Position numbers and translations under genes: made by a program. The notes below the pieces were generated by a model, which ran no database searches, was not told the origin of the DNA, and saw nothing but the letters and a program-made list of their open reading frames with translations. From a virus, in the IMG/VR virus record IMGVR_UViG_3300025732_000018: a stretch of DNA of 64,000 nucleotides, one strand, 5' to 3'. How positions within the stretch are numbered: the stretch's first letter is position 1; every line of letters begins with the position of its first letter. Shown here piece after piece: positions 23,255 through 53,316 of the stretch.

Positions 23255-26200
23255 TCACTTTCTGATGAAGTGGTAGTCGCCGTCAGGCCCTTGGTTCGAG
23301 AACAGCTCCACGTACTTGAATCCGTTCTTCTCCAGCCAGTCTATAACCTCACCCCTGAGCGGCGCCCCTTTGTTGTACTCGACGTTTTGAAGCTCGAGCA
23401 CGAGGTGCTTCACCGTCTTAAGAGTCTTCTTCATTCCCCTCAGCACGTCTAGCTCGGCGCCCTGCACGTCCATCTTGACCATATCAGGAGCTGGAAAGTT
23501 CTTCTCCTTCACGACGCTGTCGACGGACCTGGTCAGCTTCTTGACTCGATGTGTCTCGTTGAAGAAGTTGACCGTGTTCGGGTTGATCTCCTCGTTCTCC
23601 TTGTAGTAGGAGTTGCCGCCGGGGTGCTCAACGTTCTCCCAGAAGTCGACTTCTTTCCCGTCCTTGTCACTCATGACTCCGTTGAAGTGCTTGTAGTTAC
23701 CCTCCTCGTAGAGGAACTTAGGAGCGTCCATCGCCTCGAACAGGACATACTCGGCGTCAGGCCACGCGAACCTCTTTGCCGACTTAGTCCAGTGAAGGAC
23801 GCAGGCTCCGATGTCGTAGATAACTTTTGGGTGAAAGTCGTACTGGTCTCGTATCTTAGTCAGGTACTCGCAGTGAGCCTGAGGTACCAACCACTGGTCA
23901 CCTAGGTCCCTCAGACGCTTCCTCACAGGATCCTCAAGCGTCGCTGCGGGCTTAAAGTTCTTGAGGACTGTCTGCGTCGTGTGCCCGACCCTGTAGACGT
24001 TCGTGCCGTGGTGGTCGCAGCGGATCGTAGTGTCGGCGTACATCTTGAACCCCTTCTCGCGAGCCTTGCGACAGAAGTCGACGTCCTCAGACACGGTGTT
24101 GCTGTGGTCTAGAGCCGAGTGGTAGACGAACCACGGGTAGCCGATTCCCTCGAACACCCTCTTCTTCACGAGCACGCAGCCGAAGCCACAGCCGTCGATC
24201 GACACCAGACCCTGACCGTCGATGTCCTCTAGTGGTACGTTGCTCATGCCGCCTCGATCGTTCATCCTGTACAGCTCGAGCGTGTGCTGGTTATGCTTCC
24301 TCTGTATGTAGAGTCCGGAAACCAGGTCGACGTCGTGGGCAAGCATCTTCTCTAAGGTGTCTGACGCGAACTCTACATCGTAGTCGACGGCGAACAGGTA
24401 GTCGTATCCGTTCACTACCCAGCTGGCTATCAGGTTTCTCACCTGGTCGATGTTGTATCCGTAGAAGTACTGGAAGTCTGCCCTGTAACCCTCCGGGATA
24501 GTCAGGTCGTAGATAGACTTGAACGTGGCCGGCTCGATGTTCTTAGCGGTCGGTATGGCGATGAGTATCTTCTTACTGTTCACTTTTTTTTTCTCCGGTG
24601 TCTCGAAGACCGTAGACACGGTCCGCTTCGAGAGAATCTTCTTGGCCGTCTTGTTCTGCTCCTCGCCGTTGACCTTGTAGTCGTTCAGCGGGCTGGCGTC
24701 ATTATAGTTATAGACTATCTCCTTGACGGCCTTCACACGGTCTGGGTCGGCGTTCTCTATCATGGCGTAGAACAGCGCGCCGTCGCCTCCAGCCCTGAAC
24801 CACTCGCCGCTCTCGTCCTTGAAGGCGTCGTCAGTAACGTGGTTGATGAGGGCGCGCCTGAAAGTCCTCAGGTGAGTGTACGGCATAATCCAGTTAAAGT
24901 GGTAGTTCCTGTAGTCCCTCCTAGCCTTTACTTCAGGCGGGTAGTCCTGAGCTATTAGAGGGATGTTGTCGACCATCGACCAGCAGCTGCCGTAGGTGAA
25001 CTCAGCGCCGTCCGGACCGTTGTACAGGTTGTTGTAGAAGTTGAGGACGTTGTTGTCGTTGACCAGACTGTCGTCGCCGTCTAGCAGCATGACTATGGAG
25101 TCGTCGTGAACGTACTTCCTGATCACCTCGACCTGATTGAACGGGGCGCCCCTGTTCTCCCTGCGGTTGATCACCATCACCTTCTGCATCCTGTCTGGAG
25201 GAAGCAACTGAAGCGTCTCGGCTATGACTCTCTCGCTGTCGTCAGTCGAGCAGTCGTTAACGACGAAGTGAGTGTAGTTCTCGTAGTCCTGGCATGCCAC
25301 CGACTCGATGCACCTTGCCACGTAGTCTTGAGCGTTGTATAAGGTGCTGATGACGGCTATGTGGTTAGTGACCGGAGAGCGGTACGTGTTCCACTCCTCT
25401 CGGTTGCTGAACCTGCGACCGAACACCCGGTGCACCTTGTCGTTGATGTACGACGCTCTACGGTAGTCATCCACCGACAGATACAGACCAAGCTTCCTGT
25501 ACAGGTGCTGCTTCCACTGGATGGCTACAGTATCCCATCCGTTAACGTCCTTGATGACAGAACAGTAGTTCATCTTTTGTTGGTGTAGATAAGTATTATA
25601 GTACGCTTCTACAACCTTGTCAACAAATTTGTTCACCTGCTCTTCCGAATTAATGTTCGGGAACAGACCGTTTGGCTCGATGGCGTAGTCTATGAGGTAG
25701 CAGGCCTGGTCGACTGCCGTCTCCTCCAGAGCACCGAAGCGAGTGGCCACCAGCGGAGTGTTGTAGGTGAGGGACTCGAGGCTAGAGATTCCGAACGTCT
25801 CTGGGAAGGCTCCCGGAAACAGAAACATCGAGGCCTCGCAGAGGATCTCGGCTATCTGTCTCTGAGTGATGACGCCGGTGAACTCGATGCCCTGCTTCTT
25901 GTAGCGCTTCTCCTCGATCAGCTTCCGCCAGGTCTCCTCCTGAGCGTCCGGAGGAGCGTCCGACCTGAACCTGTAGTACCCACCGATCACCTTCAGCCTG
26001 GCGTCCGGGATCCGCTCCTTGACCTTCGGCCACACTCTGTCTATCAGAGGGATCATGCCCTTGGTGACAGAGGCGTTGTAGACGAAGAGGTTCTTGTCTT
26101 TCTTACTGACGTCGACGTAGTCAAAGTACGGAACGACTCCGTTGCGGGTCATGAACATCTTGTTCTTCAGGACCTCGAAGTTGCGGCGCTTGCCGTGGTC

Positions 26201-26710
26201 CGAGTTTCCGATGTAGCTGGTGTGGAAGTCTGAGAGGGTGAAGAGCTCGTCGATGTAGCCGCTGACCACGAGCTCCTCGACGTTGAGGTCACCCTGACAG
26301 AAAGTGTCGTGCATCCAGAGCGCCTTGAACCTAGCGTTCTTTCTGATCTGCTCGAAGAGGGATGGCTCGAACCTGAACCCGGCGATGTGGCGGTAGGCCT
26401 CGTACATGTACTCCGGAACGAACGGTACGACTGTCCTCATAGATATGACCACGTCGAACGTGGTGTACTGAGTAACCTCCCGGACCGGACGGTAGGTGAC
26501 CCCATCGTACGTACCCGGCTTCGAGTCGTCATCCTCGCAGGAGTTAAAGACGGTCACGTCGAACCCGAGTCGAACGAGCTCCTTGGACATCAGAATCACC
26601 GCTGACTCTGACCCACCTAGGCCTCTCTTCTTAAGGGTATCTCCATCGTAGACGAGACCGATGGTATCGATTATAGCGACCGTAACTTTATCACTCATAT
26701 TGAAGCTCAC
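23255..26710 (-). CDS. Multidomain glycosyltransferase: GT4 (GT-B) + GT2 + second GT-A domain + FkbM-type methyltransferase
   Basis: 'GLGGSESAV...FPETFGISSLESL' (GT4); 'YNAQDYVARCIESV...VNDCSTD...LDGDD' (GT2); 'ILIAIPT...VDYD...GCGFGCVLVK...SEDVDFC' (GT-A); 'YDIGA...FEA...KMDVQGAELDVL' (FkbM). The ATG at 26698 may be the true start. Confidence 0.85.
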   Translation of the reverse strand: MSFNMSDKVTVAIIDTIGLVYDGDTLKKRGLGGSESAVILMSKELVRLGFDVTVFNSCEDDDSKPGTYDGVTYRPVREVTQYTTFDVVISMRTVVPFVPEYMYEAYRHIAGFRFEPSLFEQIRKNARFKALWMHDTFCQGDLNVEELVVSGYIDELFTLSDFHTSYIGNSDHGKRRNFEVLKNKMFMTRNGVVPYFDYVDVSKKDKNLFVYNASVTKGMIPLIDRVWPKVKERIPDARLKVIGGYYRFRSDAPPDAQEETWRKLIEEKRYKKQGIEFTGVITQRQIAEILCEASMFLFPGAFPETFGISSLESLTYNTPLVATRFGALEETAVDQACYLIDYAIEPNGLFPNINSEEQVNKFVDKVVEAYYNTYLHQQKMNYCSVIKDVNGWDTVAIQWKQHLYRKLGLYLSVDDYRRASYINDKVHRVFGRRFSNREEWNTYRSPVTNHIAVISTLYNAQDYVARCIESVACQDYENYTHFVVNDCSTDDSERVIAETLQLLPPDRMQKVMVINRRENRGAPFNQVEVIRKYVHDDSIVMLLDGDDSLVNDNNVLNFYNNLYNGPDGAEFTYGSCWSMVDNIPLIAQDYPPEVKARRDYRNYHFNWIMPYTHLRTFRRALINHVTDDAFKDESGEWFRAGGDGALFYAMIENADPDRVKAVKEIVYNYNDASPLNDYKVNGEEQNKTAKKILSKRTVSTVFETPEKKKVNSKKILIAIPTAKNIEPATFKSIYDLTIPEGYRADFQYFYGYNIDQVRNLIASWVVNGYDYLFAVDYDVEFASDTLEKMLAHDVDLVSGLYIQRKHNQHTLELYRMNDRGGMSNVPLEDIDGQGLVSIDGCGFGCVLVKKRVFEGIGYPWFVYHSALDHSNTVSEDVDFCRKAREKGFKMYADTTIRCDHHGTNVYRVGHTTQTVLKNFKPAATLEDPVRKRLRDLGDQWLVPQAHCEYLTKIRDQYDFHPKVIYDIGACVLHWTKSAKRFAWPDAEYVLFEAMDAPKFLYEEGNYKHFNGVMSDKDGKEVDFWENVEHPGGNSYYKENEEINPNTVNFFNETHRVKKLTRSVDSVVKEKNFPAPDMVKMDVQGAELDVLRGMKKTLKTVKHLVLELQNVEYNKGAPLRGEVIDWLEKNGFKYVELFSNQGPDGDYHFIRK

Positions 26711-26735
26711 CCTTCCATCTCAGTAACACACTGCT

Positions 26736-26760
26736 TATAAATACTCACGAGATATTTATC
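26736..26760. promoter_or_regulatory. Face-to-face bidirectional late promoter cassette
   Basis: TATAAATA (+, 26736-26743), 9-nt spacer, TATTTATC (GATAAATA on the minus strand, 26753-26760), between divergent genes. Confidence 0.75.
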
Positions 26761-26789
26761 CCAGCTCTATAGCACACTAGGGACGCCAG

Positions 26790-29700
26790 ATGGCCAATAA
26801 GATCCAGATAAAGCGCAGCGCCGTGCCCGGCAAGGTACCCACCACGGGCAGTCTAGAGCTGGGCGAACTAGCCCTCAACACCTACGACGGCAAGCTCTTC
26901 ATCAAGATTGACAGGTCTGGTACCCAGTCGGTCGTCGAGATCGGAGCCATCGGCTACACTGGTTCTATCGGTTACACTGGATCTGTAGGATATACTGGTT
27001 CAATTGGCTACACCGGTTCCATCGGTTACACTGGTTCTCAGGGTGATACTGGCTACGTAGGAAGCAAAGGTGACCCCGGTGAGTTCGGCGGCGCCACCTT
27101 CAACTTTGAGTTCGACACCGCCGTCACTCATCCCGGCCCCCTCTCGAACGGAATAATCACCCTCAACAACGCTGACCTGACCGGCGCTTCCGTGATGGCG
27201 GTCGACTCATACGACTCAGACAACACCGACATATCGGCGTTCCTAACCTCGATTGGCGACTCTACCTCGAATATCAAAGGTCAGATAAAGCTCTCCGACA
27301 AGAACAACCTGTCGAGCTACGTCCTGTACTTCATAGACGCGGCCGCGACGCTTCACGAAGATCACTACGATATATCAGTCAACTACGTATCTGGCAGGAC
27401 TACCCAGTTCGCAGACGGCACCGCGCTGACCGCCACGTTCGCTAGGACGGGTGACCTAGGACCTACTGGTTACACTGGATCTCGTGGTGACACCGGCTTC
27501 GTAGGATCGAAGGGAGATCTAGGATACACTGGCAGCCAAGGATATACTGGATCGCAGGGCTTCACCGGCTCGCAGGGCTACGCTGGATCACGGGGCGATC
27601 AAGGCTTCACCGGATCTCAAGGTAACATCGGATTCACGGGATCGCAGGGAACTACTGGATACGTCGGATCTCAAGGATTTACCGGCAGCAAGGGCGACAT
27701 TGGCTACGTCGGATCCAAAGGAGACCAAGGATACTCAGGTTCTCAAGGATACGCCGGCAGCCAGGGTCCGATAGGTTACACCGGTTCTCAAGGTTACAGC
27801 GGCAGTCAAGGCATCATCGGCTTCACCGGCTCGCAAGGAGTTCAAGGTGTAATAGGTTACACCGGTTCTCAAGGTTACAGCGGCAGTCAAGGCAACATCG
27901 GCTTTACTGGCTCAAAGGGTGATCTAGGATATACCGGAAGTCAGGGTAACCTAGGTAACATTGGCTACACCGGCTCGAAAGGCGACATTGGATACACCGG
28001 TTCTAAGGGACTTCAGGGAGACCAAGGCGCTACTGGCTACACCGGCTCACAAGGCAACATCGGATACAGTGGGTCGCAGGGCGTAACTGGTTACACTGGA
28101 TCTTTTGGCCTGCAGGGTAACATCGGCTACAGCGGTTCGCAGGGCGTTATCGGATATACTGGTTCACAGGGTGACGTCGGGTACGTTGGCTCTCAAGGGT
28201 TCACGGGATCTCAAGGTGTCATAGGCTTCACTGGAAGTCAAGGTATAATTGGCTACACTGGAAGCCAAGGTGATCAAGGTTTCACTGGATCACAGGGTGA
28301 CGCTGGCTACACCGGCAGCCAAGGCGTTCAAGGCAATACCGGCTTCGTAGGAAGTCAAGGAATCCAGGGAGAGCTTGGCTACAGTGGAAGTCAAGGCGAC
28401 ATAGGCTACACTGGTTCTCAAGGAGAAACTGGATTCGTAGGAAGCCAAGGTGACCTAGGCTACACCGGCTCACTTGGTTACGTCGGATCACAGGGTGACA
28501 CTGGTTACGCAGGCTCTCAGGGCGACGTTGGGTTTACTGGATCCAAGGGTGACCAAGGAGTAATTGGATACACAGGATCGCAGGGTGACACTGGCTACGT
28601 TGGCTCACAGGGCTACTCCGGATCGAAAGGCGACATCGGTTGGACCGGATCGAAAGGCGACATAGGCTGGACTGGGTCGCAAGGCGACAGCGGATTTACC
28701 GGTAGTCAAGGAGTCATCGGCTACAGTGGATCTCAAGGTGAAACCGGATTTGCCGGCAGTCAAGGCGTAACAGGTTTTACTGGATCGCAGGGATACACCG
28801 GCTCTAAGGGCGACATCGGCTGGACCGGCTCTCAAGGAGACACCGGATTTACTGGATCTAAGGGAGACGCCGGATACAGTGGCTCTCAAGGAGATACCGG
28901 CTACGTCGGATCACAGGGCGACGTCGGCTTCACTGGATCTAAGGGATTCACGGGATCACAGGGCGACGTCGGCTTCACTGGATCAAAGGGCGACATTGGT
29001 TGGACCGGCTCCAAGGGTGACGCTGGATACACTGGATCGGAAGGTGTCGGCTACACTGGCTCCAAAGGTGACACCGGTCCGGCTTTCTCTGTCAGCGCTA
29101 GCGGTCTTCTCTCTGGTAAGAGTGCTTACGACGGAGAGGCTACTGGATTCTCTTACCTAGCTACAGACACCGGTGACCTGTACATCAAGAACAGCAACAC
29201 GTCCGGTGACTGGTCTTCTCCGATTCCGTTCGTTGGGTACACAGGATCTCAGGGAGCGCTGGGATACACTGGGTCGCAGGGAGTCGGATACACTGGATCA
29301 CAGGGAGACGTAGGCTTCGTAGGATCAAAGGGCGACGTCGGCTTCACTGGATCCACCGGCTACTCTGGATCACAGGGCGTCATCGGCTTTACCGGTTCAG
29401 CCTCTACCGTAGTCGGATACACTGGGTCTCAGGGCGTCATCGGCTACAGTGGATCACAGGGTGACACTGGATACGTCGGAAGTCAGGGATACACCGGCTC
29501 TAAGGGCGACATCGGTTGGACCGGGTCACAAGGTACTACCGGATACTCTGGATCGCAGGGCGACATCGGCTACTCTGGATCTAAGGGCGACATCGGCTTC
29601 ACGGGTAGCCAGGGAGACGTCGGCTACATCGGATCTCAAGGCTATACTGGCTCGCAAGGCGTCATCGGCTACAGCGGCTCGCAGGGTGTCATCGGCTACA

Positions 29701-32700
29701 CCGGTTCGAAGGGCGACCAAGGAGTAATTGGATACACTGGCTCGCAAGGCGTCATCGGCTACACCGGATCTAAGGGTGATCAGGGCGTCATAGGCTACAC
29801 TGGAAGCCTAGGTAACACAGGCTACACCGGATCGGCATCTACTGTAGCTGGTCCGACTGGATACACCGGCTCTAAAGGTGACATAGGCTACACTGGTTCC
29901 AAGGGTGCCGACGGCGGCCAGCTCACTGCGGGTGATTATGTAGTTCGCGGCAAGCTCTCAGGTACACAGACCCTCACAAACAATTCAGACACCGTTATAG
30001 CGTTCATAGACGACTACGACCCAAAGAACTGGCTGAACGCTTCTACTCACAGATTTCAACCGGACGTCGCCGGTTACTATATCATTGACCTAGCAGTAAT
30101 CTGGTCGTCGGCCTCGGTCTCAAACAACCAGTGTAACATTCAGTTCAAGAAGAACGGTACTACTCAGCTAGCGATCGCCATGAAGCAGCTTGAGACTAAT
30201 ACCGCGTACTCACAAGCTCTGACTGACGTCGTCTACTTCAACGGTAGCACTGACTACATCGAGTTCACCGCTTATACAGGAAACTCCACTAGTCAGAATC
30301 TTGAGGTAGCTGGAACTTGGTTCTCGGCCGCCCTCTACGCTTACGGACCCAAGGGTTACACCGGCTCTCTCGGCTACACCGGATCGGCCGGCGCGGGGTT
30401 CACCGGCTCGCAGGGTAACATCGGCTACACTGGGTCTCAGGGATTCACCGGCTCACAGGGTATTATTGGCTACACTGGAAGCCAGGGCATCATCGGCTTT
30501 ACCGGCTCGCAGGGCTACGCTGGATCGCAGGGCGACCTAGGCTTTACGGGAAGTCAAGGCCTCATTGGGTACACCGGGTCTCAAGGATTCACGGGCTCGC
30601 AGGGAACTACTGGCTTCGTAGGAAGTCAAGGCGTACAAGGTGAGTTGGGCTACACTGGATCACAGGGCGAGATAGGTTACACCGGCTCTCGCGGCGTGAC
30701 TGGATTCGCTGGATCACAAGGTGACCAAGGCGTAATTGGGTTCACCGGCTCCAAGGGAGACACCGGCGCAACTGGATACGTCGGTTCGCAGGGGCTACAG
30801 GGTGACCTAGGCTTCACTGGATCGCAGGGTCCGATCGGCTACACCGGAAGCCAAGGCGTACAAGGTGACACCGGGTTCATCGGCTCGCAAGGCTACACCG
30901 GCAGCCAAGGTGACCAAGGTTTAATCGGCTACACTGGAAGCCAAGGCGTACAGGGCGTAACTGGATTCGTAGGCTCTCAGGGTGACCAGGGCAACATCGG
31001 CTACACTGGCTCGCAAGGAACTACTGGATACGTTGGCTCACAAGGATACTCTGGGTCTCAAGGAGACATTGGCTACACCGGCAGTCAAGGAGAAGTTGGC
31101 TACGTAGGATCTAAAGGCTACACCGGCTCTCAGGGCGTAATCGGATTCACCGGCTCTCAGGGCGACGTAGGCTACGTAGGCTCTAAGGGAGACACCGGAA
31201 GCACCGGATACACTGGCAGCAAGGGCGACATAGGTTACACCGGCTCGTTCGGTCTGACCGGTTACACCGGCTCGTTTGGTACGACGGGTTATACCGGCTC
31301 GCGCGGCTTCGGCTACGCCGGTCTAACCTCTACCACCAGCGTCAACGCTACCGGAACTGGAATGAAGACGTTCTACGTCAGCCAGTCCTACGGTGACAAC
31401 GCGTTCGCGGTCGGTCAGAGAGTCAGGGCGATCTACCTCTACGATCCGACCCTCTTCAACGAGGGTGTGATTGACTCCTACAGTGGCACGACTCTAGTTC
31501 TCAACGTAGACTACACCTCGGGCAACGGCTTCGCCGCTGACTGGACTATCGTGGTCGCCGGTGACAGGGGAATCAGAGGCTACACTGGATCGATCGGCTT
31601 CACAGGCTCGCAGGGAGACCAGGGCGCGACTGGATACACCGGAAGCAAGGGTGATCAAGGAAACGTCGGCTACACCGGAAGTCAGGGACTGCAGGGCGAC
31701 GTTGGCTTCGTAGGCTCGCAGGGCTACACTGGCTCGAAGGGACTGCAGGGAGACCAGGGCTACACGGGGTCGCAGGGATCTACGGGTCTGACTGGATACA
31801 CTGGAAGTCAGGGCGACGTCGGAGCAATTGGCTACACCGGATCTAAGGGTGACCAAGGATTCATCGGCTACACCGGATCTAAAGGCGATCAAGGTAACAT
31901 CGGCTACACTGGATCTCAGGGAGACCAGGGCGTCAGAGGTTACACCGGCTCGCAGGGAGACCAGGGAGCTACCGGCTACGTCGGCTCGCAGGGCGCTCAG
32001 GGCAACATAGGCTACACGGGCTCTAAGGGTGACGCAGGGTCTACCGGCTACGCTGGAAGCAAGGGTGACATAGGTTACACAGGCTCGCAGGGAGACCTAG
32101 GATACAGTGGATCCAAGGGTGACCTAGGTTACACCGGCTCGATCGGTTCTACCGGATACACCGGAAGCAAGGGTGAGCCAGGAACGTTTGGTGGAGCGGC
32201 GTTCGACTACACGTTCGACACGTCCACCGCCGACTCAGACCCCGGCACCGGAAAGATCCGCCTCAGCAACGCCAACACCGCGCTGGCGTCGTCTCTCTAC
32301 ATCAACGAGAACGACGACCTGGCAGTCTCAGTGTACAACTACCTGCAGACGATCGACGACTCGACCTCCTCGATCAAGGGTCACTTCACGATAACCGAGA
32401 AAGCGAACACCGCCAACTTCGCTCAGTTCTCGATAACTGGCACTCATACACACAACACTAACTACTTCTCCGTTCCGATCGCGTGGCTGACCGGAGCTTA
32501 CTCTTTCTCTAACGGCCTTGACATCATCGTCACCTTCGCTAGGACCGGCGACAAGGGCGACGCTGGCTACACCGGTTCTGCCGGCGGACTTGGATATACT
32601 GGCAGCAAGGGCGACACGGGTTACACTGGATCTATCGGATCTATCGGCTACACCGGATCGCAGGGAACTCAGGGAACCACCGGCTACACCGGAAGTCAAG

Positions 32701-44404: not shown

Positions 44405-44412
44405 TATAAATA
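44405..44412 (+). promoter_or_regulatory. T4-type late promoter (TATAAATA)
   Basis: Exact consensus in the intergenic region upstream of collagen-like fibre 2. Confidence 0.8.
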
Positions 44413-44451: not shown

Positions 44452-47400
44452 ATGGCCGATACTATCTGGGACTACAGCGGTTCAGTACAGGAGCTGATCG
44501 ATCTCTACAACAGCTGGTCTACTCTTCCACTCGAGGAGCAGGCAGCCAAGGAGGGAACTCGGTTTCTTATCACTGGTGACGGCTTTACTAACGGGGCCGG
44601 AGCTTGGTTTGACTGGGGGCTAGACGGCGGTATCATATGGGTCTACAGTATCACACCGTCTTGGTGGGTCTGGTATAATAATGAAAAGGTAACCACGTCA
44701 CCGTTTGGTTCCACTCTACCAGGATACGCAGCTGACGTAGTCTATATGCTTAATGCAGTCGGTCTACCCGGCTCAACTTCGGCATTTCCTTCTAACACCC
44801 CCCGCTACAGCTTCTGGGGAGAAGCCAGAGTACAAGGATATACCGGTTCACGCGGCATGATCGGCTACACTGGTACGATCGGCTTCGCAGGATCTATCGG
44901 TTATGCCGGCTCTCGAGGCTACACTGGCTCGTCAGGCTACACCGGGTCCGCATCTACTTTCCCAGGATACACCGGATCTCAGGGCTACACCGGATCTGCA
45001 ATCGTCGGCTCTCGCGGTTACACCGGGTCTGCGTCTACGGTCATCGGCTACACTGGAAGCATTGGGTACACCGGCTCCAAGGGTGTACAGGGCATTCAAG
45101 GAAACACCGGTTATACCGGATCCGAGGGTCCTCCCAACGGCTACACCGGCTCTAGAGGTAGCACCGGCTACACTGGCTCGGTTGGATACTCTGGAAGCCT
45201 AGGCTACACTGGATCGAGAGGACTGACTGGATTCTCCGGATCTGGCTTCGCCGGCTCTCAGGGATACACTGGCTCACTCGGCTACACGGGCTCACAGGGC
45301 TACAGCGGCTCTGCCGGATTCACCGGATCGGCGTCGACTGCTCCGGGATACACCGGATCTATCGGATACACGGGTTCAGCTGGTTACACCGGCAGCAGGG
45401 GTCTAACAGGCATACAAGGAGACCAAGGTCTTGCTGGCTACACCGGTTCGGTAGGAGAGTCGCTGCAGCCGGACGAGGTCGGACCTCTCTCTGGCAGAAG
45501 TGCTTACGACACTCAAGCTAAAGGATTCGCGTACCTAGCGACCGACACCGACTCCATCTACTATAAGCTCAGCGCTACTTCTGGCGACTGGTCAGACCCT
45601 ATAGCTCTCCTTCGCGGATTCACTGGGTCGCAGGGCTTCACTGGATCTTTTGGATTCACCGGCTCAGTCGGGTTCGTAGGGTCTCTCGGCTACACTGGTA
45701 GCATCGGCTACACTGGATCGATAGGCTACACTGGATCGCAGGGCTTCACCGGGTCTAAGGGATTCACCGGCTCCGCGTCTGAGATTCCTGGTTACAGCGG
45801 TTCTCGCGGCTTCACCGGCTCGGTAGGCTTCGTAGGATCTCAGGGCGTTCAAGGATGGACTGGCTCGCAAGGTCCGCCGGACGGATACACCGGTTCTAGA
45901 GGTTACACCGGCTCACTGGGGTCTCTTGGCTACACCGGCAGCATCGGCTACACCGGATCTCAAGGCATCCGCGGCTACACGGGTTCAGTAGGTTTCGTAG
46001 GTTCTGCCAGCACGACGCCAGGGTACACCGGCTCGAAGGGCGACTCTGGCTACACCGGATCCAAGGGAGACATAGGCTACACCGGTTACACCGGCTCTAA
46101 GGGTGACCCAGACGGATACACTGGATCTACCGGAGCTCAGGGATACACCGGCTCGCGCGGCTTCGGCTACTCCGGAGTTGCTAGCTCGACCAACATAAAC
46201 GCCTCAGGTACTGGTAACAAGACCTGGGTGATGAACCAGTCCTACACGCAGAACGCTTTCGAGCCTGGAATGCGCGTCAGGATGATATGCGTCGACGACC
46301 CGAACGTCTCGAACGAGGGTAACATCGTCAGCTACGTCGGAACCAACTTGACCATCTCGGTCGACGCGGTCGACGGCGCAGGATTCCAGAACAACTGGAT
46401 ACTCGCTGCTACGGGACGCGTCGGATACCTAGGCTACTCAGGATCTAGGGGCTACACCGGCTCGGTAGGATTTACCGGCTCGGTAGGCTTCGTCGGATCG
46501 GTCGGATTCGCTGGGTCTAGGGGATACACCGGATCGCAGGGTGACATCGGTTACACCGGATCTGCCTCTACCGTCGCCGGCCCTCTCGGCTACACGGGCT
46601 CACAGGGCTACAGCGGGTCGAGGGGCGACACCGGAGCTACCGGCTTCGTAGGGTCTCAAGGTGACCTAGGCTACACCGGCTCTCGCGGCTTCGGTGGAAG
46701 TCAGGGTTACGCTGGATCGCGCGGCTTCACTGGATCGATAGGCGACACGGGCTACACCGGATCCGCCTCGTCGACTCCAGGGTACACCGGCTCACTTGGC
46801 TATACCGGGTCTAGAGGATACAACGGAAGCCAGGGCGACATAGGCTACACCGGCAGCCTAGGCTACACGGGATCTCAGGGACCGATCGGCTACGTCGGAT
46901 CTGCTTCTACCGAGATAGGTCCTACGGGATACACCGGTAGCATCGGTTACACTGGATCGAGAGGCTACGCTGGATCGATCGGTGATACTGGATTCACCGG
47001 CTCGTTCGGAACGACAGGCTACACCGGATCGTTTGGGTTTACCGGATCGAAGGGCGACATCGGGTACTCAGGATCTGCGTCTACCGTTCCTGGTTATACG
47101 GGAAGTCTGGGTTACACTGGATCGCAAGGAGACATCGGCTACACCGGTTCAGCCTCTACTGTAGCTGGACCTACTGGTTACTCCGGCTCACAGGGTGACA
47201 TCGGTTACACTGGATCTAAAGGATTCACCGGATCGTTCGGTAACACCGGCTACACCGGCTCTGCTGGTGCGGGATTTACCGGCTCGCAGGGTGACACAGG
47301 CTTCACTGGATCGGGTGGATACACCGGATCGTTCGGATACACCGGGTCGGCTGGATCATTCGTCGTACCAGGTACGAACACACAGGTAGTGTTCAACGAC

Positions 47401-47811
47401 GGCGGTAACGCTAACACCGCGGCTACCTTCGTGTACGACAAGACCAACGGCAGGGTCGGTGTGGGAACTGCCTCGCCGGCGGCCACGATCGACGTGACCG
47501 GAAACTATGGCATGAACATCGTCACTGTCACTGCGTCGGACATCGACTGCTCTCAGGGCAACTACTTCACTAAGACTGCATCTGGAGCTCTGACGTGGAC
47601 CTTCTCTAACGTACCGGCTTCTAGGGCGGTGCTCGTGATCCTCGAGCTCACCAACGGTGGCACCGGAACTCAGACCTGGCCGGCGTCTGTTAAGTGGCCA
47701 GGTGGAACGGCACCAGTTCTAACGGTGTCTGGAGTAGACGTCATAACGTTCCTAACTGACGACAGCGGCACGACGTGGCGCGGTAACCCGACCATGTTGG
47801 ACAGCAAGTAA
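44452..47811 (+). CDS. Collagen-like fibre protein 2
   Basis: GYTGS Gly-X-Y repeats. Shares two inserts and the C-terminal 'DCSQGNYFTKT...LELTNGG...SGTTWRG' domain with fibre 1 but has a different N-terminus. Confidence 0.85.
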   Translation: MADTIWDYSGSVQELIDLYNSWSTLPLEEQAAKEGTRFLITGDGFTNGAGAWFDWGLDGGIIWVYSITPSWWVWYNNEKVTTSPFGSTLPGYAADVVYMLNAVGLPGSTSAFPSNTPRYSFWGEARVQGYTGSRGMIGYTGTIGFAGSIGYAGSRGYTGSSGYTGSASTFPGYTGSQGYTGSAIVGSRGYTGSASTVIGYTGSIGYTGSKGVQGIQGNTGYTGSEGPPNGYTGSRGSTGYTGSVGYSGSLGYTGSRGLTGFSGSGFAGSQGYTGSLGYTGSQGYSGSAGFTGSASTAPGYTGSIGYTGSAGYTGSRGLTGIQGDQGLAGYTGSVGESLQPDEVGPLSGRSAYDTQAKGFAYLATDTDSIYYKLSATSGDWSDPIALLRGFTGSQGFTGSFGFTGSVGFVGSLGYTGSIGYTGSIGYTGSQGFTGSKGFTGSASEIPGYSGSRGFTGSVGFVGSQGVQGWTGSQGPPDGYTGSRGYTGSLGSLGYTGSIGYTGSQGIRGYTGSVGFVGSASTTPGYTGSKGDSGYTGSKGDIGYTGYTGSKGDPDGYTGSTGAQGYTGSRGFGYSGVASSTNINASGTGNKTWVMNQSYTQNAFEPGMRVRMICVDDPNVSNEGNIVSYVGTNLTISVDAVDGAGFQNNWILAATGRVGYLGYSGSRGYTGSVGFTGSVGFVGSVGFAGSRGYTGSQGDIGYTGSASTVAGPLGYTGSQGYSGSRGDTGATGFVGSQGDLGYTGSRGFGGSQGYAGSRGFTGSIGDTGYTGSASSTPGYTGSLGYTGSRGYNGSQGDIGYTGSLGYTGSQGPIGYVGSASTEIGPTGYTGSIGYTGSRGYAGSIGDTGFTGSFGTTGYTGSFGFTGSKGDIGYSGSASTVPGYTGSLGYTGSQGDIGYTGSASTVAGPTGYSGSQGDIGYTGSKGFTGSFGNTGYTGSAGAGFTGSQGDTGFTGSGGYTGSFGYTGSAGSFVVPGTNTQVVFNDGGNANTAATFVYDKTNGRVGVGTASPAATIDVTGNYGMNIVTVTASDIDCSQGNYFTKTASGALTWTFSNVPASRAVLVILELTNGGTGTQTWPASVKWPGGTAPVLTVSGVDVITFLTDDSGTTWRGNPTMLDSK

Positions 47812-47823
47812 CAGGTAGAAGAG

Positions 47824-48321
47824 ATGGCTAGATACGCTTACGTAGATAACAACGAGATAGTAGAGCTAGTAGATCAGCTACCGAAGAGCTGGAAGAACTA
47901 CAGCAACTTTGATCTTATGGACCCTCAGTCCCTATTCGAGCTGGGTTGGCTTCCGGTCGACGAGTCTCAGGTAGTCGTACCCCCGTTCAACGGACTAGCA
48001 GAGAGAGCCGTAGTCAACTACGAGATCACTCCGTCTGGTGTTAGAGCGTTCGTGACGATAGTTCCTCATGACTCGACGTCGGAGCAGGAGGTCAGACAGG
48101 CCTACATGGCCGCTCTGAGAGACAGAAGAAACTCGAAGCTGCAGCAGTGTGACTGGACTGTGCTTCCCGACTCCATAGAGTCTAGAGGACAGCAGTGGAA
48201 GGAGCAGTGGGCCTCCTACAGGCAGACGCTGAGAGACTTTCCGTCGTTCTACGAGACAGTTCCTCTCAGCGATCTACCGGACATCGACTCTATTCTATGG
48301 CCTATTCCCCCAGCGGTTTAA
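47824..48321 (+). CDS. Tail fibre assembly chaperone 2
   Basis: 'RDRRNSKLQQCDWTVLPD...WASYRQTLRDFP...WPIPP'; paralogue of 33726-34208. Confidence 0.8.
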   Translation: MARYAYVDNNEIVELVDQLPKSWKNYSNFDLMDPQSLFELGWLPVDESQVVVPPFNGLAERAVVNYEITPSGVRAFVTIVPHDSTSEQEVRQAYMAALRDRRNSKLQQCDWTVLPDSIESRGQQWKEQWASYRQTLRDFPSFYETVPLSDLPDIDSILWPIPPAV

Positions 48322-48337
48322 TATCGAGAACTAACAG

Positions 48338-50701
48338 ATGCTGATCCTTGGCTCAGGAATTATGAGAAAGAAAGTTCAGAGTGACTCTCTGTTCGGGGCC
48401 GGCTATAGTACTTGGTATAGTCTCGGAAACAGCTTTGATGGTGCTAGAAGCTCTCCAGTCGCGGTGACTGCAGCCGGAAACCCTCTGATCTACAAGTCTT
48501 GGAAGACTGTTACTGGAACTAACGGAAACACCGCGGCGTTAAACAGCGTCGGAGAGCTCTACGTCTGGGGTGACAATAACTTTGGACAGTGGGGAAACAA
48601 GACTGCAGGAAATACGAGTCTAGCTCAGCCTGGATTTGACAGAGCGACGCATAGGTCTAGCCCTACGCTGGTTCCCTCTACAGGAAGTTGGACAGTAATT
48701 TCTGTCGGAGGTTACTCGGGGGAAGAGTATAGAGAAGTATGCAATACTGGAATCTACGACCCTAGCGCTCACGTTGCAGGGATCAAGTCAGACGGGACTC
48801 TCTGGACCTGGGGTTACGGGATCTACGGTAAGCTTGGAGCTGGAAACACTTTTAGCAGGTCTTCTCCTACTCAGCTTGGAACTAAGACTGACTGGGTAGA
48901 CGTTGCGTGCGGACCGGAGTTTACGATAGCGTGCGACTCTGCGGGTGACTTGTACGCGTGGGGACACAACTACAGAGGTCAGCTCGGTGACGGAACTACT
49001 ATCGACAGGTCTTCACCGGTCCTCGTGTCCTCAGTTAGAAACTACACCAAGGTCTACGCATCTGGGATGAAGTCGTTCGCAGTCGACGACACTAATCAGT
49101 TGTACTGGGCAGGAGCCGGAGCGAACGCTACATCCCTTGGATACTATCCGACATCAATCGACTCATTGACTCACTCGTCAGTAACCCTTGGAAACAACTT
49201 CTCTAGCGGTTCGATGGGTCCTCAGCACGGTCTGTTCATAAAGACTACCGGCGCTCTATACGCGGCTGGAATCAACGACTACGGGCAGCTTGGTCTCAAC
49301 GACACTTTCAGCAGGTCGAGCTTTGTTCAAGTAGGAGCTGGAACCAACTGGTCAACCGTTATAGTGTCAGCCAGCCACACGCTAGCTCTCAACAACACCG
49401 GGTCTCTGTTCGTCTGGGGAAGAAATAACTACGGACAGCTTGGACTCGGCGACGTCGTGAACAGGTCTTCTCCGACTCTTCTGTCCACCGGCGTCTCTTA
49501 CGTAATGGCTGCTGGATATAACACCTTCTACGTTAAGACCGACGGTACCCTGTGGGCCGTCGGAACCGAGAGATCTGGTCAGCTAGGTAATCAAGACTTA
49601 CTGCTTGACTTTGACACACCACACATCAACAGATCTTCTCCGATTCAGATAGGCTCCGGATTCACGTCTAACATCTTTGGAAAGTCTAACTATCGCGGGG
49701 CTGGAGCTAAGAGCTATATAAACGACGGAAAGCTCTACATGTGGGGTGTCAACGGATACGCGGCTGCGGACGACAACGCTACGAGTTGGACACCATACAA
49801 AAACTTCTGGCTTATGGAGACGAACAGACTCTTCACCAAGGTGCCCGGATCATGGAGTGCTGTATCCATGGGAACTGAGTACGCAGTAGCTATCAAGTCA
49901 GATGGGACCCTATGGTCTTGGGGATCTAATGCATCTTATGGACAGCTTGGAATCAACCTTACTAGCGCAGCAGGAAACAACGGCAGAAGCATACCAGTTC
50001 TAGTATCAAGCGACACGACCTGGAAGAAAGTTCAGGCTGGATTTGGCGGAGCTCTAGCTCTAAAGGGAGCTAGCAGCCCATACAGCCTCTACGGCTGGGG
50101 ATACTACTACATCACGGGTCAGAACAGTTCTATAAACAGAAGCTCTCCGGTGATCATTGGAGCGGCAAACAACTGGAAAGACATAGGCTTCAGTGAGAAT
50201 AGTCTGACGGTCTACGCCGTGGATAAGAACGACAACATCTACGTGTGGGGATACAACAACGTAGGACAGCTAGGCTTAAGCGACACGATCGATCGCTTCA
50301 GTCCTGTGCTACTTGCTACAGGTCAAGCAGGGGCAAAGGTGCAGGCCGGACAGGATCACGGACATATAATTAAGTCCGACGGCTCGCTGTGGTCCACTGG
50401 AAGCAGCGCCTACGGACAGACCGCTCTCGGCTACACTAACGTTTCTAGCTTCACTCAGGTCGGAAGCTCCTCTTGGACAGCGGTAAGCGCCGGCCAGCAA
50501 CACTCTCTAGGCATAGACGCGGCTGGTCGCCTTTTTGCCTGGGGAAGAAACAACTACGGGCAGCTGATGGGTCCGTCTCCAAACATTATCACCTACACGT
50601 ACTCGACGGTTCAAGTCGGGTCTGGCGCTTACGGAAGTTGGACTCTCGTTCGTGCAGCGAGAGACAGCTCGTTCGCCTCAGCTAAGGTAGACATTACTTA
50701 A
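48338..50701 (+). CDS. RCC1-repeat protein 2, putative fibre-tip adhesin
   Basis: About 14 repeats of 'GTLWTWG.N..GQLG....RSSP'. Confidence 0.85.
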   Translation: MLILGSGIMRKKVQSDSLFGAGYSTWYSLGNSFDGARSSPVAVTAAGNPLIYKSWKTVTGTNGNTAALNSVGELYVWGDNNFGQWGNKTAGNTSLAQPGFDRATHRSSPTLVPSTGSWTVISVGGYSGEEYREVCNTGIYDPSAHVAGIKSDGTLWTWGYGIYGKLGAGNTFSRSSPTQLGTKTDWVDVACGPEFTIACDSAGDLYAWGHNYRGQLGDGTTIDRSSPVLVSSVRNYTKVYASGMKSFAVDDTNQLYWAGAGANATSLGYYPTSIDSLTHSSVTLGNNFSSGSMGPQHGLFIKTTGALYAAGINDYGQLGLNDTFSRSSFVQVGAGTNWSTVIVSASHTLALNNTGSLFVWGRNNYGQLGLGDVVNRSSPTLLSTGVSYVMAAGYNTFYVKTDGTLWAVGTERSGQLGNQDLLLDFDTPHINRSSPIQIGSGFTSNIFGKSNYRGAGAKSYINDGKLYMWGVNGYAAADDNATSWTPYKNFWLMETNRLFTKVPGSWSAVSMGTEYAVAIKSDGTLWSWGSNASYGQLGINLTSAAGNNGRSIPVLVSSDTTWKKVQAGFGGALALKGASSPYSLYGWGYYYITGQNSSINRSSPVIIGAANNWKDIGFSENSLTVYAVDKNDNIYVWGYNNVGQLGLSDTIDRFSPVLLATGQAGAKVQAGQDHGHIIKSDGSLWSTGSSAYGQTALGYTNVSSFTQVGSSSWTAVSAGQQHSLGIDAAGRLFAWGRNNYGQLMGPSPNIITYTYSTVQVGSGAYGSWTLVRAARDSSFASAKVDIT

Positions 50702-51473
50702 TCAAGTCGTTGTAGTTGTACTGCGCGCTCGTGAAGTACTGATACTTTCCCTGTAGCTTCAAGGGAAACTTGATTCTCTCTATTCTAGCGCCGGTCCTGC
50801 TAGCTATCGACTCAGCCACCTCTGTGAAGCTCTTAGGCGCAGCAGTACCTACGTCGTAGATTCCTGACTCTTTCTTGCACTCTAGGATAGTCTTCACGAC
50901 GCTGTTGACATGTATAAAGTCACGGTGAGCGCTGTCAGAGTTGTCGAAGATCTTTATGACTCTTGTCTCGTTCGCCTGCTGCATGAACTTGTAGTATGGA
51001 CTCGCCTGCTCCCCCTTCGACCCCTCGTTGTCACCGTACACATTGAAAAACCTCATCCCCCTCACGAGCTTGAACCTGCTCATGTTGTCCTCGACCCAGG
51101 CGTCGACGGTAGCCTTGGTCATGGCGTAGTAGTTAAGCGGGTTTATCCTGTACTGCTTTCCCTCACATGTGTTGCCATAGACCGACCCAGAGCTCGCGTA
51201 TGTGACCGGGATCTGGTAGTCGATCGCCTTCTCAAAGAGCCTGATGCTGAAGTCCACGTTGTGCGCGTGCAAGAGGTTAATGTCCTTGCAGGTCGTGTCT
51301 GATATTGCTCCGAGGTGATAGATCTCGTCGACGTTCTCCCACTCTATCGCGTCTAGGATGGTAAAGATGTCTGGGAGAGTGTTCGTCAGCGTGTCGTAGC
51401 AGGCGACCTGACCGTCAAGCTTTGCCAGCAGGTTCCTTCCAATGAATCCACAGTTACCGGTGACAAACTTCAT
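50694..51473 (-). CDS. hldD: ADP-L-glycero-D-manno-heptose 6-epimerase-like SDR
   Basis: 'VTGNCGFIG', 'HLGAISDTT', 'YASSGSVYG', 'PLNYYAMTK' (YxxxK), 'RFFNVYG..E..KG', 'GKYQYFT'. Confidence 0.85.
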   Translation of the reverse strand: MKFVTGNCGFIGRNLLAKLDGQVACYDTLTNTLPDIFTILDAIEWENVDEIYHLGAISDTTCKDINLLHAHNVDFSIRLFEKAIDYQIPVTYASSGSVYGNTCEGKQYRINPLNYYAMTKATVDAWVEDNMSRFKLVRGMRFFNVYGDNEGSKGEQASPYYKFMQQANETRVIKIFDNSDSAHRDFIHVNSVVKTILECKKESGIYDVGTAAPKSFTEVAESIASRTGARIERIKFPLKLQGKYQYFTSAQYNYNDLIK

Positions 51474-51789
51474 CTTGGTTGATCTCCCTGTGAGGACCGG
51501 TGAAGTACAGGTCTGCGTTCATGGCCTTGTCGTCTATCCACACGTCGTACGACGGCTTCTTCATCTTCAAGCTAGTGTACCTGCAGCCCCACTCGTGAAG
51601 CTGTCTCTCGGTCAGTTCGCTCCAGTCGATACCAGAGTTTCCGCCGCGCGCGGTCCAGTAGTGGATCTCGTGACCCCAGTCGTACAGCATGTTGAAGTGG
51701 TTGATCCTATCCTTGATGGGCTCGCTCCTCGTGTAGTCAGACCCCTTGGTCCTGCATATGGTCCCGTCGATGTCGACCATGTACCTCAT
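51454..51789 (-). CDS. Small HAD-superfamily phosphatase
   Basis: 'VDIDGTIC' (DxD), 'WTARG', 'KP.YDVWIDDKA'. Confidence 0.8.
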   Translation of the reverse strand: MRYMVDIDGTICRTKGSDYTRSEPIKDRINHFNMLYDWGHEIHYWTARGGNSGIDWSELTERQLHEWGCRYTSLKMKKPSYDVWIDDKAMNADLYFTGPHREINQDEVCHR

Positions 51790-52145
51790 CGCTGAGAGTC
51801 TCCTGGCATCACGCGGTAGTTGTCGGCCGGATCGTCCTGACTTGACACCTCGAAGATGGAGGAGTCGTCCTCTAGAGCCTCGAGCTGGTGAACGAAGCCT
51901 GGCATCACACGCACCACGTGACCCATGACGATAGTCTCTTCTTTGATCTGGGCTGTAGACTGGTCTATGGTTCTAAGGTTGAAAGACCCAGTCACCACCA
52001 TGAAGGTCTCGTCCTTCTTCATGTGATAGTGCATGCTTCCCTTTGAGCCCGCCTTGTCAAACTGAAGTATCTTACCACAGTACAGCTCGTTTGAGGCAAA
52101 TATGATCTCTCTTCCCCATCCTTTTTCTACCGTCTGTCTACTCAT
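51786..52145 (-). CDS. Cupin-fold sugar isomerase-like protein
   Basis: 'KGWGRE...YCGKIL...SMHYHMKKDETF...PGFVHQLEALED..IFEVS' contains the cupin metal motif. Confidence 0.75.
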   Translation of the reverse strand: MSRQTVEKGWGREIIFASNELYCGKILQFDKAGSKGSMHYHMKKDETFMVVTGSFNLRTIDQSTAQIKEETIVMGHVVRVMPGFVHQLEALEDDSSIFEVSSQDDPADNYRVMPGDSQR

Positions 52146-53316
52146 TTCTCATCTTCTCCACGATGTCAGTAGTCGAGAAACCCTCGACGAGTGGTATGAT
52201 TATAACTTCAGCTAGATCGTTGCCTACTACGGTAGACACCTGATAGTCGCCTCCCTTGGTGATGATTGACGGCTGTACGCTCTTGATTAGCTCGAGCGGA
52301 GTGTCCTCATCGAAGATGATCACCTCGTCGACCCACTTGATCGCCTCGAGTGCGGCCTTCCTAGACTCCTGGTCATTGATGGGTCTGCACATTCCTTTAA
52401 GCCTGCGAACGCTCTCGTCGCTGTTGATCCCCACTACGAGTCTGTCTCCCATGTCGCGAGACTTCTTAAGTAACTCGATGTGCCCACGGTGCAGGATGTC
52501 GAAGCAGCCGTTGGTGAAGACTACCTTAGGACGCGCCTTAGCTATGTCCTCGGCAGTAAGCTTGTACGTGCCGAAGCGAGTGACTGATATCGTGGCCAGG
52601 GTGGTGGCCTGATGAAGCGCCGTGGCGAGATCCTTTCCTGCAGCCAGAGCTGATACCATTCCGGCAGTCACCACGTCTCCCGCTCCAGTGACGTCGGCCA
52701 CCTCTACCTTCTCGGTCGGGAAGTGTCCAACTGACCCGTCCTTGCTATAGGTGTATATTCCGTCGGATCCAGCCGTCACCACTAGGTTCTCGATGTCATA
52801 GTACTTTAAGACGTCGAGTGCCTCATAACCCTCGACGCCACTCTTCTTGAGTTCCTGCTTGTTCATCTTGACCATCCAGGCTCCGGAGCACTCTTGCAGG
52901 ACTCCCTTGGTATCTACGATAACGCGACTCCCTCTCTCGCTGTAGTACTCGATCAGATCTTCTACTGAAGTGATTGTGCCCTTTAGATAGTCTACCAAGA
53001 CGACGTAGTCGTAGTGCTTGTCAGACTTAAATGAGCTTGTCGGGTGACTGTCGGTGGCGTCGTCGTCACACCTGAAGACTATCTTGTTGTCGCAGACGTA
53101 CCGAGTCTTAAACGAGGTGCTACCCGTCATGATGTCGGGTCTACACCCTAGAGCCTTGAGGTTCTCGTATACGTTGTATACCCCTCCAGACTTACTGGTC
53201 TCTCTGATCTGATAGAAGATTGGGATAGGAGCCTCGGCAGAGACCCTCTCGGTTCCACAGTAGACGTATCGGTCTAGTATGGCGTCTCCGATCACTAGAA
53301 CATTCATGTCGCTCAC
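52138..53316 (-). CDS. hldE: Bifunctional heptose kinase / nucleotidyltransferase
   Basis: 'VIGDAILDRY...RVSAEAPIP', 'DYLKG', 'DVTGAGDVV' (PfkB kinase); 'VFTNGCFDILHRGH...GINSDESVRRLKG..RPIN...KGGDY...STT'. Likely start is the ATG at 53307. Confidence 0.9.
   Translation of the reverse strand: MSDMNVLVIGDAILDRYVYCGTERVSAEAPIPIFYQIRETSKSGGVYNVYENLKALGCRPDIMTGSTSFKTRYVCDNKIVFRCDDDATDSHPTSSFKSDKHYDYVVLVDYLKGTITSVEDLIEYYSERGSRVIVDTKGVLQECSGAWMVKMNKQELKKSGVEGYEALDVLKYYDIENLVVTAGSDGIYTYSKDGSVGHFPTEKVEVADVTGAGDVVTAGMVSALAAGKDLATALHQATTLATISVTRFGTYKLTAEDIAKARPKVVFTNGCFDILHRGHIELLKKSRDMGDRLVVGINSDESVRRLKGMCRPINDQESRKAALEAIKWVDEVIIFDEDTPLELIKSVQPSIITKGGDYQVSTVVGNDLAEVIIIPLVEGFSTTDIVEKMRNE

Follow-up and report, generated by a model that had tools for sequence, protein, structure and literature searches.

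What do the sugar genes that lie among the tail-fibre genes of T4-like aquatic phages act on? The question is raised by an island at positions 23255-53316 of the window analysed here, a 64,000-nt stretch that forms the first 64 kb of a 117.8-kb freshwater T4-like phage contig of approximately 70% completeness (IMG/VR record IMGVR_UViG_3300025732_000018). No role has been demonstrated for the sugar genes of T4-like cyanophages since 2005, and the guesses made so far are a change of host lipopolysaccharide (LPS) or "stuffer DNA" (PMC1079782, PMC3037559, PMC7029224). Our comparative analysis showed that the island combines two modules that are found apart in other phages, with two sets of glycosyltransferase (GT) genes tied to two types of structural gene. 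We estimate the probability at roughly 0.55 that these modules O-glycosylate the phage's own fibre and propeller proteins in the cytoplasm.

The island encodes 13 proteins and consists of two fibre-chaperone-RCC1 triads and sugar genes, flanked by baseplate and tail-fibre genes on the left and by gp13-gp20 on the right. A preliminary description of the sequence had reported an island of approximately 30 kb in the structural module, just before gp13, with two Thr/Ser-packed collagen-like fibres, two Ser/Thr-rich RCC1 proteins, a GT4+GT2+GT-A+FkbM fusion, a GT9-like GT-methyltransferase fusion, a GT25-like enzyme and an hldE/hldD operon, each sugar transcription unit being preceded by a late-promoter box. 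Every one of these gene classes was recovered at 23255-53316, and the family, fold and promoter analyses given below agree with each assignment; a tail-fibre assembly chaperone gene after each collagen gene, and a cupin and a small HAD phosphatase in the hld operon, were additional to that list. The two triads are paralogous, with identities of 57% between the fibre C-terminal domains, 31.5% between the chaperones and approximately 31% between the RCC1 proteins. All 13 island proteins are predicted to be soluble (maximum Kyte-Doolittle 19-residue mean, 1.52). Since none has a predicted membrane segment, the island contains no Gtr/Wzx/Wzy-type machinery; Pfam and hydropathy searches revealed no Gtr-, Wzx- or Wzy-type membrane partner, lipid-carrier transferase, flippase or polymerase among these proteins.

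The division into two modules emerged from a comparison of approximately 240 related viral loci. For module B, which is centred on the GT9-like gene (2862 database matches), 80 IMG/VR loci and the cultured cyanophage BUCT-ZZ01 were compared. The giant RCC1 gene ends no more than 400 nt upstream of the GT9-like gene in 59 of the 67 loci with enough upstream sequence, and a chaperone gene lies between the two in three more; in the few true exceptions, the GT9-like gene follows other large proteins with 25-31% Ser+Thr. GT25 is found within 2.5 kb downstream of the GT9-like gene in 60/77 loci, and wherever the flank reaches, the order is fibre, chaperone, RCC1, GT9-like, GT25, gp13-gp14. The fibre-chaperone-RCC1-GT9-like order before gp13 is also kept in BUCT-ZZ01, where UTS52182.1 is the fibre and UTS52180.1 the RCC1 protein. 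The fibres of module B have a common C-terminal domain and a Ser/Thr content of 24-30%, and two of the nine complete ones are collagenous.

Module A, centred on the four-domain GT fusion, was studied in 16 closely and 80 more distantly related viral loci with 51 distinct architectures, which again lie in the fibre region and often just before gp13. A collagen-like open reading frame (ORF) is present in 31 of these 51 architectures and directly adjacent in 22, often in divergent orientation as in the window. By comparison, collagen was found in 16/73 control loci that carry a GT9-like gene and no four-domain enzyme (odds ratio 5.5, p 1.4e-5; because the loci are related to each other, this p-value and the one below overstate independence and are indicative only). 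Neither the GT9-like gene nor RCC1 was present at any of the 51 module A loci, and HldE was detected in 2 of them, as against 19/75 module B loci (odds ratio 8.3, p 0.0013). The division into two modules and the pairing of collagen with the four-domain enzyme are results of the present comparison. They run counter to the wiring proposed in the preliminary description, in which heptose was to be transferred by the GT9-like enzyme onto GYTGS collagen: the GT9-like, GT25 and hld genes track RCC1, collagen tracks the four-domain fusion, and the expected co-occurrence of GYTGS collagens with GT9/hldE is weak. The broader proposal of a late module that decorates the phage's own fibres fared better, being favoured by the late boxes, the structural position and the linkage to fibre genes. 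Because the sugar genes of many related phages are tied to particular fibre genes, virion decoration fits the loci better than a random set of "LPS genes" does.

The enzyme of module A is a GT4-GT2-GT-A-FkbM methyltransferase fusion of 1151 aa encoded on the minus strand at 23255..26710, with ATG 26698 as its likely true start. Pfam and NCBIfam placed the GT4 domain, of the GT-B type, at residues 204-347, the GT2 domain, of the GT-A type, at residues 451-623 and the FkbM methyltransferase at residues 966-1133. The third domain gave weak Pfam matches only; it was settled by a fold model in which residues 640-950 form a second GT-A fold with an invariant DSD motif. The best match to this region was STIV A197 (Z 20.9), followed by the accessory domain of LH3 (18.6), Mnn9 (17.0), COLGALT1 (16.5) and Mimivirus R699 (16.4), with ordinary GT-A folds at approximately 14; that collagen-modifying enzymes score modestly above other GT-A folds in this model-based comparison is only a hint. 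The same four-domain architecture is widespread (1354 homologues). A few copies (homologues P0148 and P0170) carry an extra fused GT25 domain, which suggests that GT25 is functionally tied to this enzyme as well.

The four-domain gene is divergent from that of collagen-like tail fibre 1 (2307 aa; 26790..33713, plus strand; Pfam Collagen, E 2e-213), which has a conserved fibre N-terminus, six G-X-Y blocks of the GYTGSxG type with globular inserts between them, and the C-terminal domain in common with fibre 2 (1119 aa; 44452..47811, plus strand; Pfam Collagen, E 2e-82, and PHROG tail fibre families). Counting runs of five or more, fibre 1 contains 521 G-X-Y triplets and fibre 2 contains 213, with blocks such as GYT-GSQ-GDI. 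Thr is the commonest residue at Y (159/521 triplets in the long fibre) and Ser at X, proline is scarce, and Ser+Thr amounts to 23.5% of fibre 1 and 26.0% of fibre 2. The long uninterrupted G-X-Y runs identify both proteins as collagen-like. Each collagen gene is followed by a chaperone gene of the Phage_tail_APC family, the first encoding 160 aa (33726..34208, plus strand; Pfam E 1e-16, PHROG tail fibre assembly) and the second 165 aa (47824..48321, plus strand; Pfam). At window position 48084, within the second chaperone gene, the window has G and the genome copy of the contig has T, a Glu to Asp change.

The third member of each triad is an RCC1-repeat protein with a predicted beta-propeller fold. 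The giant one, of 2570 aa and 23.4% Ser+Thr, is encoded at 34219..41931 on the plus strand (Pfam RCC1/WD40_RLD), and the second, of 787 aa and 20.7% Ser+Thr, at 48338..50701 on the same strand (Pfam). An RSSP motif occurs 24 times in the large protein and 7 times in the small one, roughly once per blade or two, and is a candidate sugar acceptor site, although the motif is presumably common in bacterial RCC1-like repeats too. The PHROGs that match the RCC1 proteins are classed under nucleotide metabolism, a family naming that looks wrong.

Downstream of the giant RCC1 gene lies the GT9-like enzyme of module B, a fusion of 577 aa at 41972..43705 on the plus strand that was identified by fold model, protein atlas and synteny; the ORF is listed from TTG 41912, and ATG 41972 is the likely true start. 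Pfam gave no match in the first 380 residues, and a sequence search of the family against the PDB returned a marginal methyltransferase match only. A fold model built on 32 homologues (pLDDT, the predicted local distance difference test score, 84.7) revealed an N-terminal four-helix region of approximately 75 residues (21-95 of the listed ORF), a GT-B domain at residues 114-378 and a class I S-adenosylmethionine-dependent methyltransferase at residues 388-578. The eight best PDB matches to the GT-B domain were all GT9 heptosyltransferases, including 3tov (Z 18.8), WaaF (17.7), TibC (16.9) and WaaC (16.6), each over approximately 240 aligned residues, and the next GT-B structure outside GT9 scored Z 10.8. 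In a protein-atlas search with this domain, 29 of the 30 nearest clusters were GT9, and an invariant GGxGDE motif was found at the start of its first Rossmann half, a candidate for the G-D motif that holds the N-terminal catalytic Asp of GT9 enzymes (Asp13 in WaaC). The window protein did not reach the Pfam GT9 (PF01075) threshold, and weak matches were obtained for 11/32 relatives (best E-value, 0.019). The domain therefore has the GT9 fold but only grazing Pfam matches, and we call it GT9-like rather than a certified member of the family. ADP-heptose is its candidate donor.

The end of the GT9-like gene is overlapped by the gene of a GT25-family glycosyltransferase of 235 aa (43692..44399, plus strand; PF01755, 54.2 bits against a curated cut-off of 24), and the two are probably co-transcribed. 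Other cyanophages encode relatives of the GT9-like domain that bear a TPR annotation and lie beside tail-fibre genes; in the cultured freshwater cyanophage S-SRM01 (MW015081.1 216847-235602), such a gene lies downstream of a tail-fibre gene. The same S-SRM01 gene run also encodes a sulfotransferase, another glycosyltransferase and a nucleotide-sugar epimerase.

The putative donor pathway is encoded by a minus-strand operon at 50694-53316 for an HldE-like protein, a cupin, a small HAD phosphatase and an HldD-like protein. The HldE-like bifunctional kinase/adenylyltransferase (52138..53307, likely true start ATG 53307) has a PfkB domain followed by a CTP_transf_like domain (Pfam), with GAGD at residue 208 and HRGH at residue 273. 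The HldD-like short-chain dehydrogenase/epimerase (259 aa; 50694..51473) has the motifs GNCGFIG and YAMTK and is approximately 50 residues shorter than the TIGR02197 model. Heptose enzymes were by far the best family matches of both proteins (E 3e-83 to NF008454 and E 5e-55 to TIGR02197), and all scores fell below the curated equivalog cut-offs: 280 vs 521 bits for NF008454, 174 vs 181.5 for TIGR02199 and 167 vs 345 for TIGR02198 in the case of HldE, and 186.8 vs 274.6 for TIGR02197 in the case of HldD. Judging from these family matches, the likeliest product of the cassette, though not a proven one, is ADP-heptose.

Between these two genes lie those of the cupin (119 aa; 51786..52145) and the phosphatase (111 aa; 51454..51789), also on the minus strand. 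The phosphatase has a DIDGT motif and weak Pfam and NCBIfam HAD matches (phrog_1238, E 4e-26), which make it a candidate for the heptose-1,7-bisphosphate phosphatase step. The cupin was assigned by Pfam, NCBIfam and alignment and has an invariant metal site of three His and one Glu (H39, H41, E46 and H86). Its profile matched oxalate decarboxylases, sugar isomerases and the epimerase domain of Cap5F in the PDB alike, so that an isomerase role and an epimerase role cannot be separated on this basis. No SIS-domain GmhA (SIS_2) was matched in the 117.8-kb, approximately 70% complete contig, and the cassette has the cupin instead; the cupin may replace the missing sedoheptulose-7-phosphate isomerase GmhA, or it may epimerise or tailor the sugar.

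The same four families, namely kinase/adenylyltransferase, cupin, HAD and epimerase, make up the "LPS gene" clusters of the marine cyanomyoviruses P-SSM2, S-SSM7, S-CAM1 and P-TIM68, at 34-38% identity. Those clusters have been described near hli or phoH, whereas the cassette in the window abuts fibre genes and has a late box. Two PHROG names in the cassette look wrong: the "phosphoheptose isomerase" phrog_1238 is the small HAD phosphatase with its DxDxT motif, and the "cysteine dioxygenase" phrog_7851 is the cupin. Annotations of "phosphoheptose isomerase" in cyanophages may inherit the former error.

When would these genes be expressed? The window contains 14 copies of ATAAATA, the core of T4-type late promoters, where 1.35 would be expected; 12 are on the plus strand, mostly just upstream of structural genes, and only two on the minus strand (26753 and 53336), each 20-45 nt ahead of one of the two minus-strand sugar units. 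TATAAATA is present three times in the 64 kb against 0.34 expected, before both collagen genes (44405-44412 on the plus strand for the second) and gp13. The two divergent intergenic regions have a near-identical layout of CTTATAAATAC, eight bases and TATTTATC, which forms a face-to-face late-promoter cassette in each. In the first (26734..26762), TATAAATA at 26736-26743 on the plus strand faces the collagen gene and GATAAATA at 26753-26760 on the minus strand faces the GT fusion gene; in the second (53317..53345), TATAAATA at 53319-53326 on the plus strand faces gp13 and GATAAATA at 53336-53343 on the minus strand faces the hld operon. Plus-strand ATAAATA boxes also precede the large RCC1 gene (34167-34173) and the GT9-like gene (41931-41937). 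Among the relatives, 14/19 distinct cases have a box in the 150 nt before gp13 and 17/57 have one before the GT9-like gene, against a background of 0.022. As in T4-type late units, a TATAAATA-type box is thus common to sugar and structural genes, and late expression of the sugar genes is well supported as a prediction.

Scans for sigma-70 promoters and terminators gave no excess over shuffles. One perfect sigma-70 consensus (TTGACA, 17 nt, TATAAT) is present inside the four-domain gene at 25595-25623 on the minus strand, in the same direction as the gene; a 12/12 match in this stretch is unlikely by chance on a rough estimate, and the site could let the host polymerase transcribe the part that encodes GT2, GT-A and the methyltransferase early in infection. 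A second site with an 11/12 match lies at 53522-53550 on the minus strand, in the start of the gp13 coding region, and is directed towards the hld operon approximately 200 nt away.

These results suggest a late-expressed kit with which the phage would glycosylate its own attachment proteins while these are still unassembled in the host cytoplasm. In module A, the soluble four-domain enzyme would build a short O-linked glycan, probably methyl-capped, on the Thr/Ser-rich, proline-poor collagen fibres, the parallel being the BclA collagen of Bacillus spores. In module B, the GT9-like enzyme with its fused methyltransferase, aided by GT25, would modify the giant RCC1 protein or the fibre-propeller complex encoded just upstream, and the HldE-cupin-HAD-HldD cassette would supply an ADP-heptose-type donor in hosts that cannot provide one. 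The domain identities, the late-type boxes, the predicted solubility and the gene linkages across many phages are what we observed; from them we infer the protein acceptors, the identity of the sugar and its O-linkage, and whatever the glycans may do for fibre stability, receptor binding or shielding.

Several better-known systems offer parallels. TibC and Aah use ADP-heptose to O-heptosylate Ser residues of a large repetitive adhesin, TibA and AIDA-I respectively, in the cytoplasm. The phage enzyme resembles them in its GT9-type fold (Z 16.9 to TibC) and in the position of its gene beside that of a large repetitive protein, an adjacency kept in 59/67 loci, with RCC1 as the putative substrate. 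It differs in the fused methyltransferase, the N-terminal helical region and the proposed acceptor, which is an RCC1 propeller rather than a beta-helix; the four-cysteine iron-finger cluster of TibC/Aah is also absent, the transferase part having three Cys, of which one is invariant in the 32 relatives. BclA, from the Bacillus anthracis exosporium, is a proline-poor collagen with Thr at Y and, O-linked to Thr, an oligosaccharide that ends in a methylated sugar. The phage fibres are likewise proline-poor collagens with Thr at the Y position; unlike them, BclA belongs to a spore surface and not to a virus, its repeat is GPT rather than GYT-GSQ, and the enzymes are not homologous as far as tested.

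Other parallels concern domain architecture. In FlmG of Caulobacter crescentus, a TPR N-terminal part binds the flagellin substrate and a GT-B domain transfers the sugar (PMC7591256). The GT9-like enzyme is similar in domain layout, with a helical N-terminal part before the GT-B domain and with relatives annotated as TPR proteins; FlmG, however, transfers pseudaminic acid to flagellin, and the helical part of the phage enzyme measures only approximately 75 residues. Among giant viruses, A064R of PBCV-1 is a transferase-transferase-methyltransferase that assembles the glycan of a virion protein and caps it with methyl groups, and the GT25-related L230 of Mimivirus glycosylates viral collagen-like proteins and needs lysyl hydroxylase (PMC9614988). 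The island resembles these in its multi-domain GT-methyltransferase, the middle GT-A domain of which scores Z 16-19 to LH3, COLGALT1 and Mimivirus R699, and differs in that the hosts of the giant viruses are eukaryotic. Hydroxylysine-type collagen glycosylation in the metazoan or Mimivirus style was considered and set aside as unlikely because no 2-oxoglutarate (2OG) oxygenase was found in the contig: PF13640 (2OG-Fe(II) oxygenase, the lysyl hydroxylase partner) was unmatched, and phrog_61 matched the GT25 gene only. By analogy, Thr/Ser O-linkage as in BclA appears to be the better model.

Virion glycosylation by phage enzymes has been shown experimentally for the capsid and tail-tube proteins of mycobacteriophages (Freeman et al. 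2023, as summarised in PMC12619734). There, as proposed here, glycosyltransferases encoded by the phage modify its own structural proteins within the host cell. The targets, in contrast, are the C-termini of capsid and tail-tube proteins in mycobacteriophages and would be fibres and propellers in the present phage, the enzyme families differ, and the mycobacteriophage system has no dedicated nucleotide-sugar supply, unlike the island. No report of glycosylated fibres in T4-like aquatic phages was found in the literature that we searched.

Several observations weigh against decoration of the phage's own fibres and have to be set beside those in its favour. A virion glycan in this group is a prediction from gene content, and the RCC1 proteins are putative virion components. 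Since the HldE- and HldD-like scores lie below the equivalog cut-offs, the identity of the sugar is not secure, and the GT9-like domain is below its Pfam threshold. The hld cassette is optional, being missing from most module B loci, and HldE is absent from the complete BUCT-ZZ01 genome, in which the GT9-like gene is present; the donor may therefore be a sugar other than heptose, or heptose may come from the host. (Two of five long but incomplete module B contigs that lack a nearby cassette contain only cytidylyltransferase-like fragments.) The mutual relatedness of the loci limits the statistics as stated above, and the 11/12 sigma-70-like site upstream of hldE could permit early expression of the operon. 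Finally, GT9, GT25, HldE and HldD are textbook LPS-core families, and host-surface change is the published view of such genes in T4-like aquatic phages (PMC1079782, PMC7029224; see also PMC3037559).

The LPS-core families and the published view, together with the sigma-70-like site, favour host-surface remodelling, in which the enzymes and ADP-heptose would alter the LPS core or another envelope glycan and so block superinfection or the loss of progeny to debris. The missing membrane segments do not count against this explanation, as LPS-core transferases are also soluble or peripheral. It does not account for the late-type boxes common to sugar and structural genes, nor does a general surface function predict that two enzyme sets should be tied to two structural gene types over approximately 240 loci; moreover, the island lacks a lipid-carrier transferase, a flippase, a polymerase and a Gtr-type membrane protein, relatives of the GT9-like enzyme carry TPR repeats in the same polypeptide, and the LPS of the host may contain no heptose. 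On balance we regard host-surface remodelling as the less likely explanation, at something like one chance among several, but as a serious competitor. Sugar transfer onto phage DNA is far less probable still. The addition of sugars to modified bases is a common role of phage glycosyltransferases (bioRxiv 10.1101/2023.12.21.572611, PMC13326640), yet Pfam and NCBIfam revealed no base-modifying enzyme in the island, the late-type boxes and the location among fibre genes point elsewhere, and the fusion of transferases with FkbM-type and class I methyltransferases agrees with glycan tailoring of the kind known from PBCV-1 A064R (PMC9614988).

A glycan might also be made that is not covalently bound to a protein, such as a free or lipid-free oligosaccharide, a polysaccharide coat loosely attached to the virion and perhaps held by RCC1 as a lectin-like protein, or a glycosylated small molecule. 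Several transferase domains and two methyltransferases do suggest a multi-sugar product, propeller proteins often bind carbohydrates, and the acceptor site on the proteins is only a candidate. A protein acceptor nevertheless agrees better with the close linkage to particular structural genes and with the TPR-type relatives, and no polymerase or export component is present in the island, which leaves this explanation improbable in our judgement. We would give similarly long odds to the absence of any functional link, whereby the sugar genes would be unrelated cargo of a hypervariable, recombination-prone fibre zone. Tail-fibre regions of T4-like phages are known to gather accessory genes (PMC7029224), the hld cassette varies in position and orientation between loci, and HldE is often split. 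Chance accumulation is, however, difficult to reconcile with an RCC1, GT9-like, GT25 order that is kept in approximately 90% of loci at 45-67% protein identity, with the specific pairing of the four-domain enzyme with collagen, and with the size and conservation of both enzyme families (2862 and 1354 homologues).

If fibre decoration is correct, glycans would belong to the machinery by which some of the most abundant aquatic viruses recognise their hosts, and host range, resistance to proteases and grazers, and adsorption would be affected. It would also explain the so-called LPS genes of aquatic phages; for the sugar clusters of marine cyanophages, the function has been left open between "stuffer DNA" and host LPS (PMC3037559, PMC1079782), and Sullivan et al. 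(2010) left open whether such genes function at all (PMC3037559). A tentative extension, against which we would place the odds without dismissing it, is that aquatic T4-like phages generally use their "LPS genes" as substrate-dedicated virion-glycosylation modules: the four-domain enzyme would act on proline-poor collagen, with Thr-linked sugars in the helix-stabilising role of hydroxyproline, and the GT9-like-methyltransferase and GT25 would act on RCC1 adhesins with a phage ADP-heptose pathway in which a metal cupin stands in for GmhA. The two gene pairings point to the protein to examine for each enzyme, and, with BUCT-ZZ01 (on Synechococcus elongatus PCC 7942) and S-SRM01 in culture, the idea can be tested directly. 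The enzymes would, in addition, be new tools for cytoplasmic protein glycosylation.

The surroundings of the island are those of a T4-like structural module according to PHROG matches. On the left, baseplate hub and wedge genes (262-14158) are followed by a VrlC-like giant protein in three ORFs (14172-21477) and by a tail fibre with its assembly protein (21701-23006). The right border is formed by a gp13-like neck protein (53364..54101, plus strand; phrog_211, E 4e-40), after which come gp14, gp15, the large terminase, sheath, tube and portal. By DNA, the closest cultured relatives are T4-like phages of Stenotrophomonas, Acidovorax and Sinorhizobium, and for one island gene the nearest cultured relative is the freshwater cyanophage BUCT-ZZ01; psbA is absent from the contig and tRNA genes from the window. 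The VrlC-like protein (phrog_358, 2056 positions) is split over consecutive ORFs of 1176, 397 and 842 aa, and its homologue in BUCT-ZZ01 is encoded by one ORF of 2097 aa.

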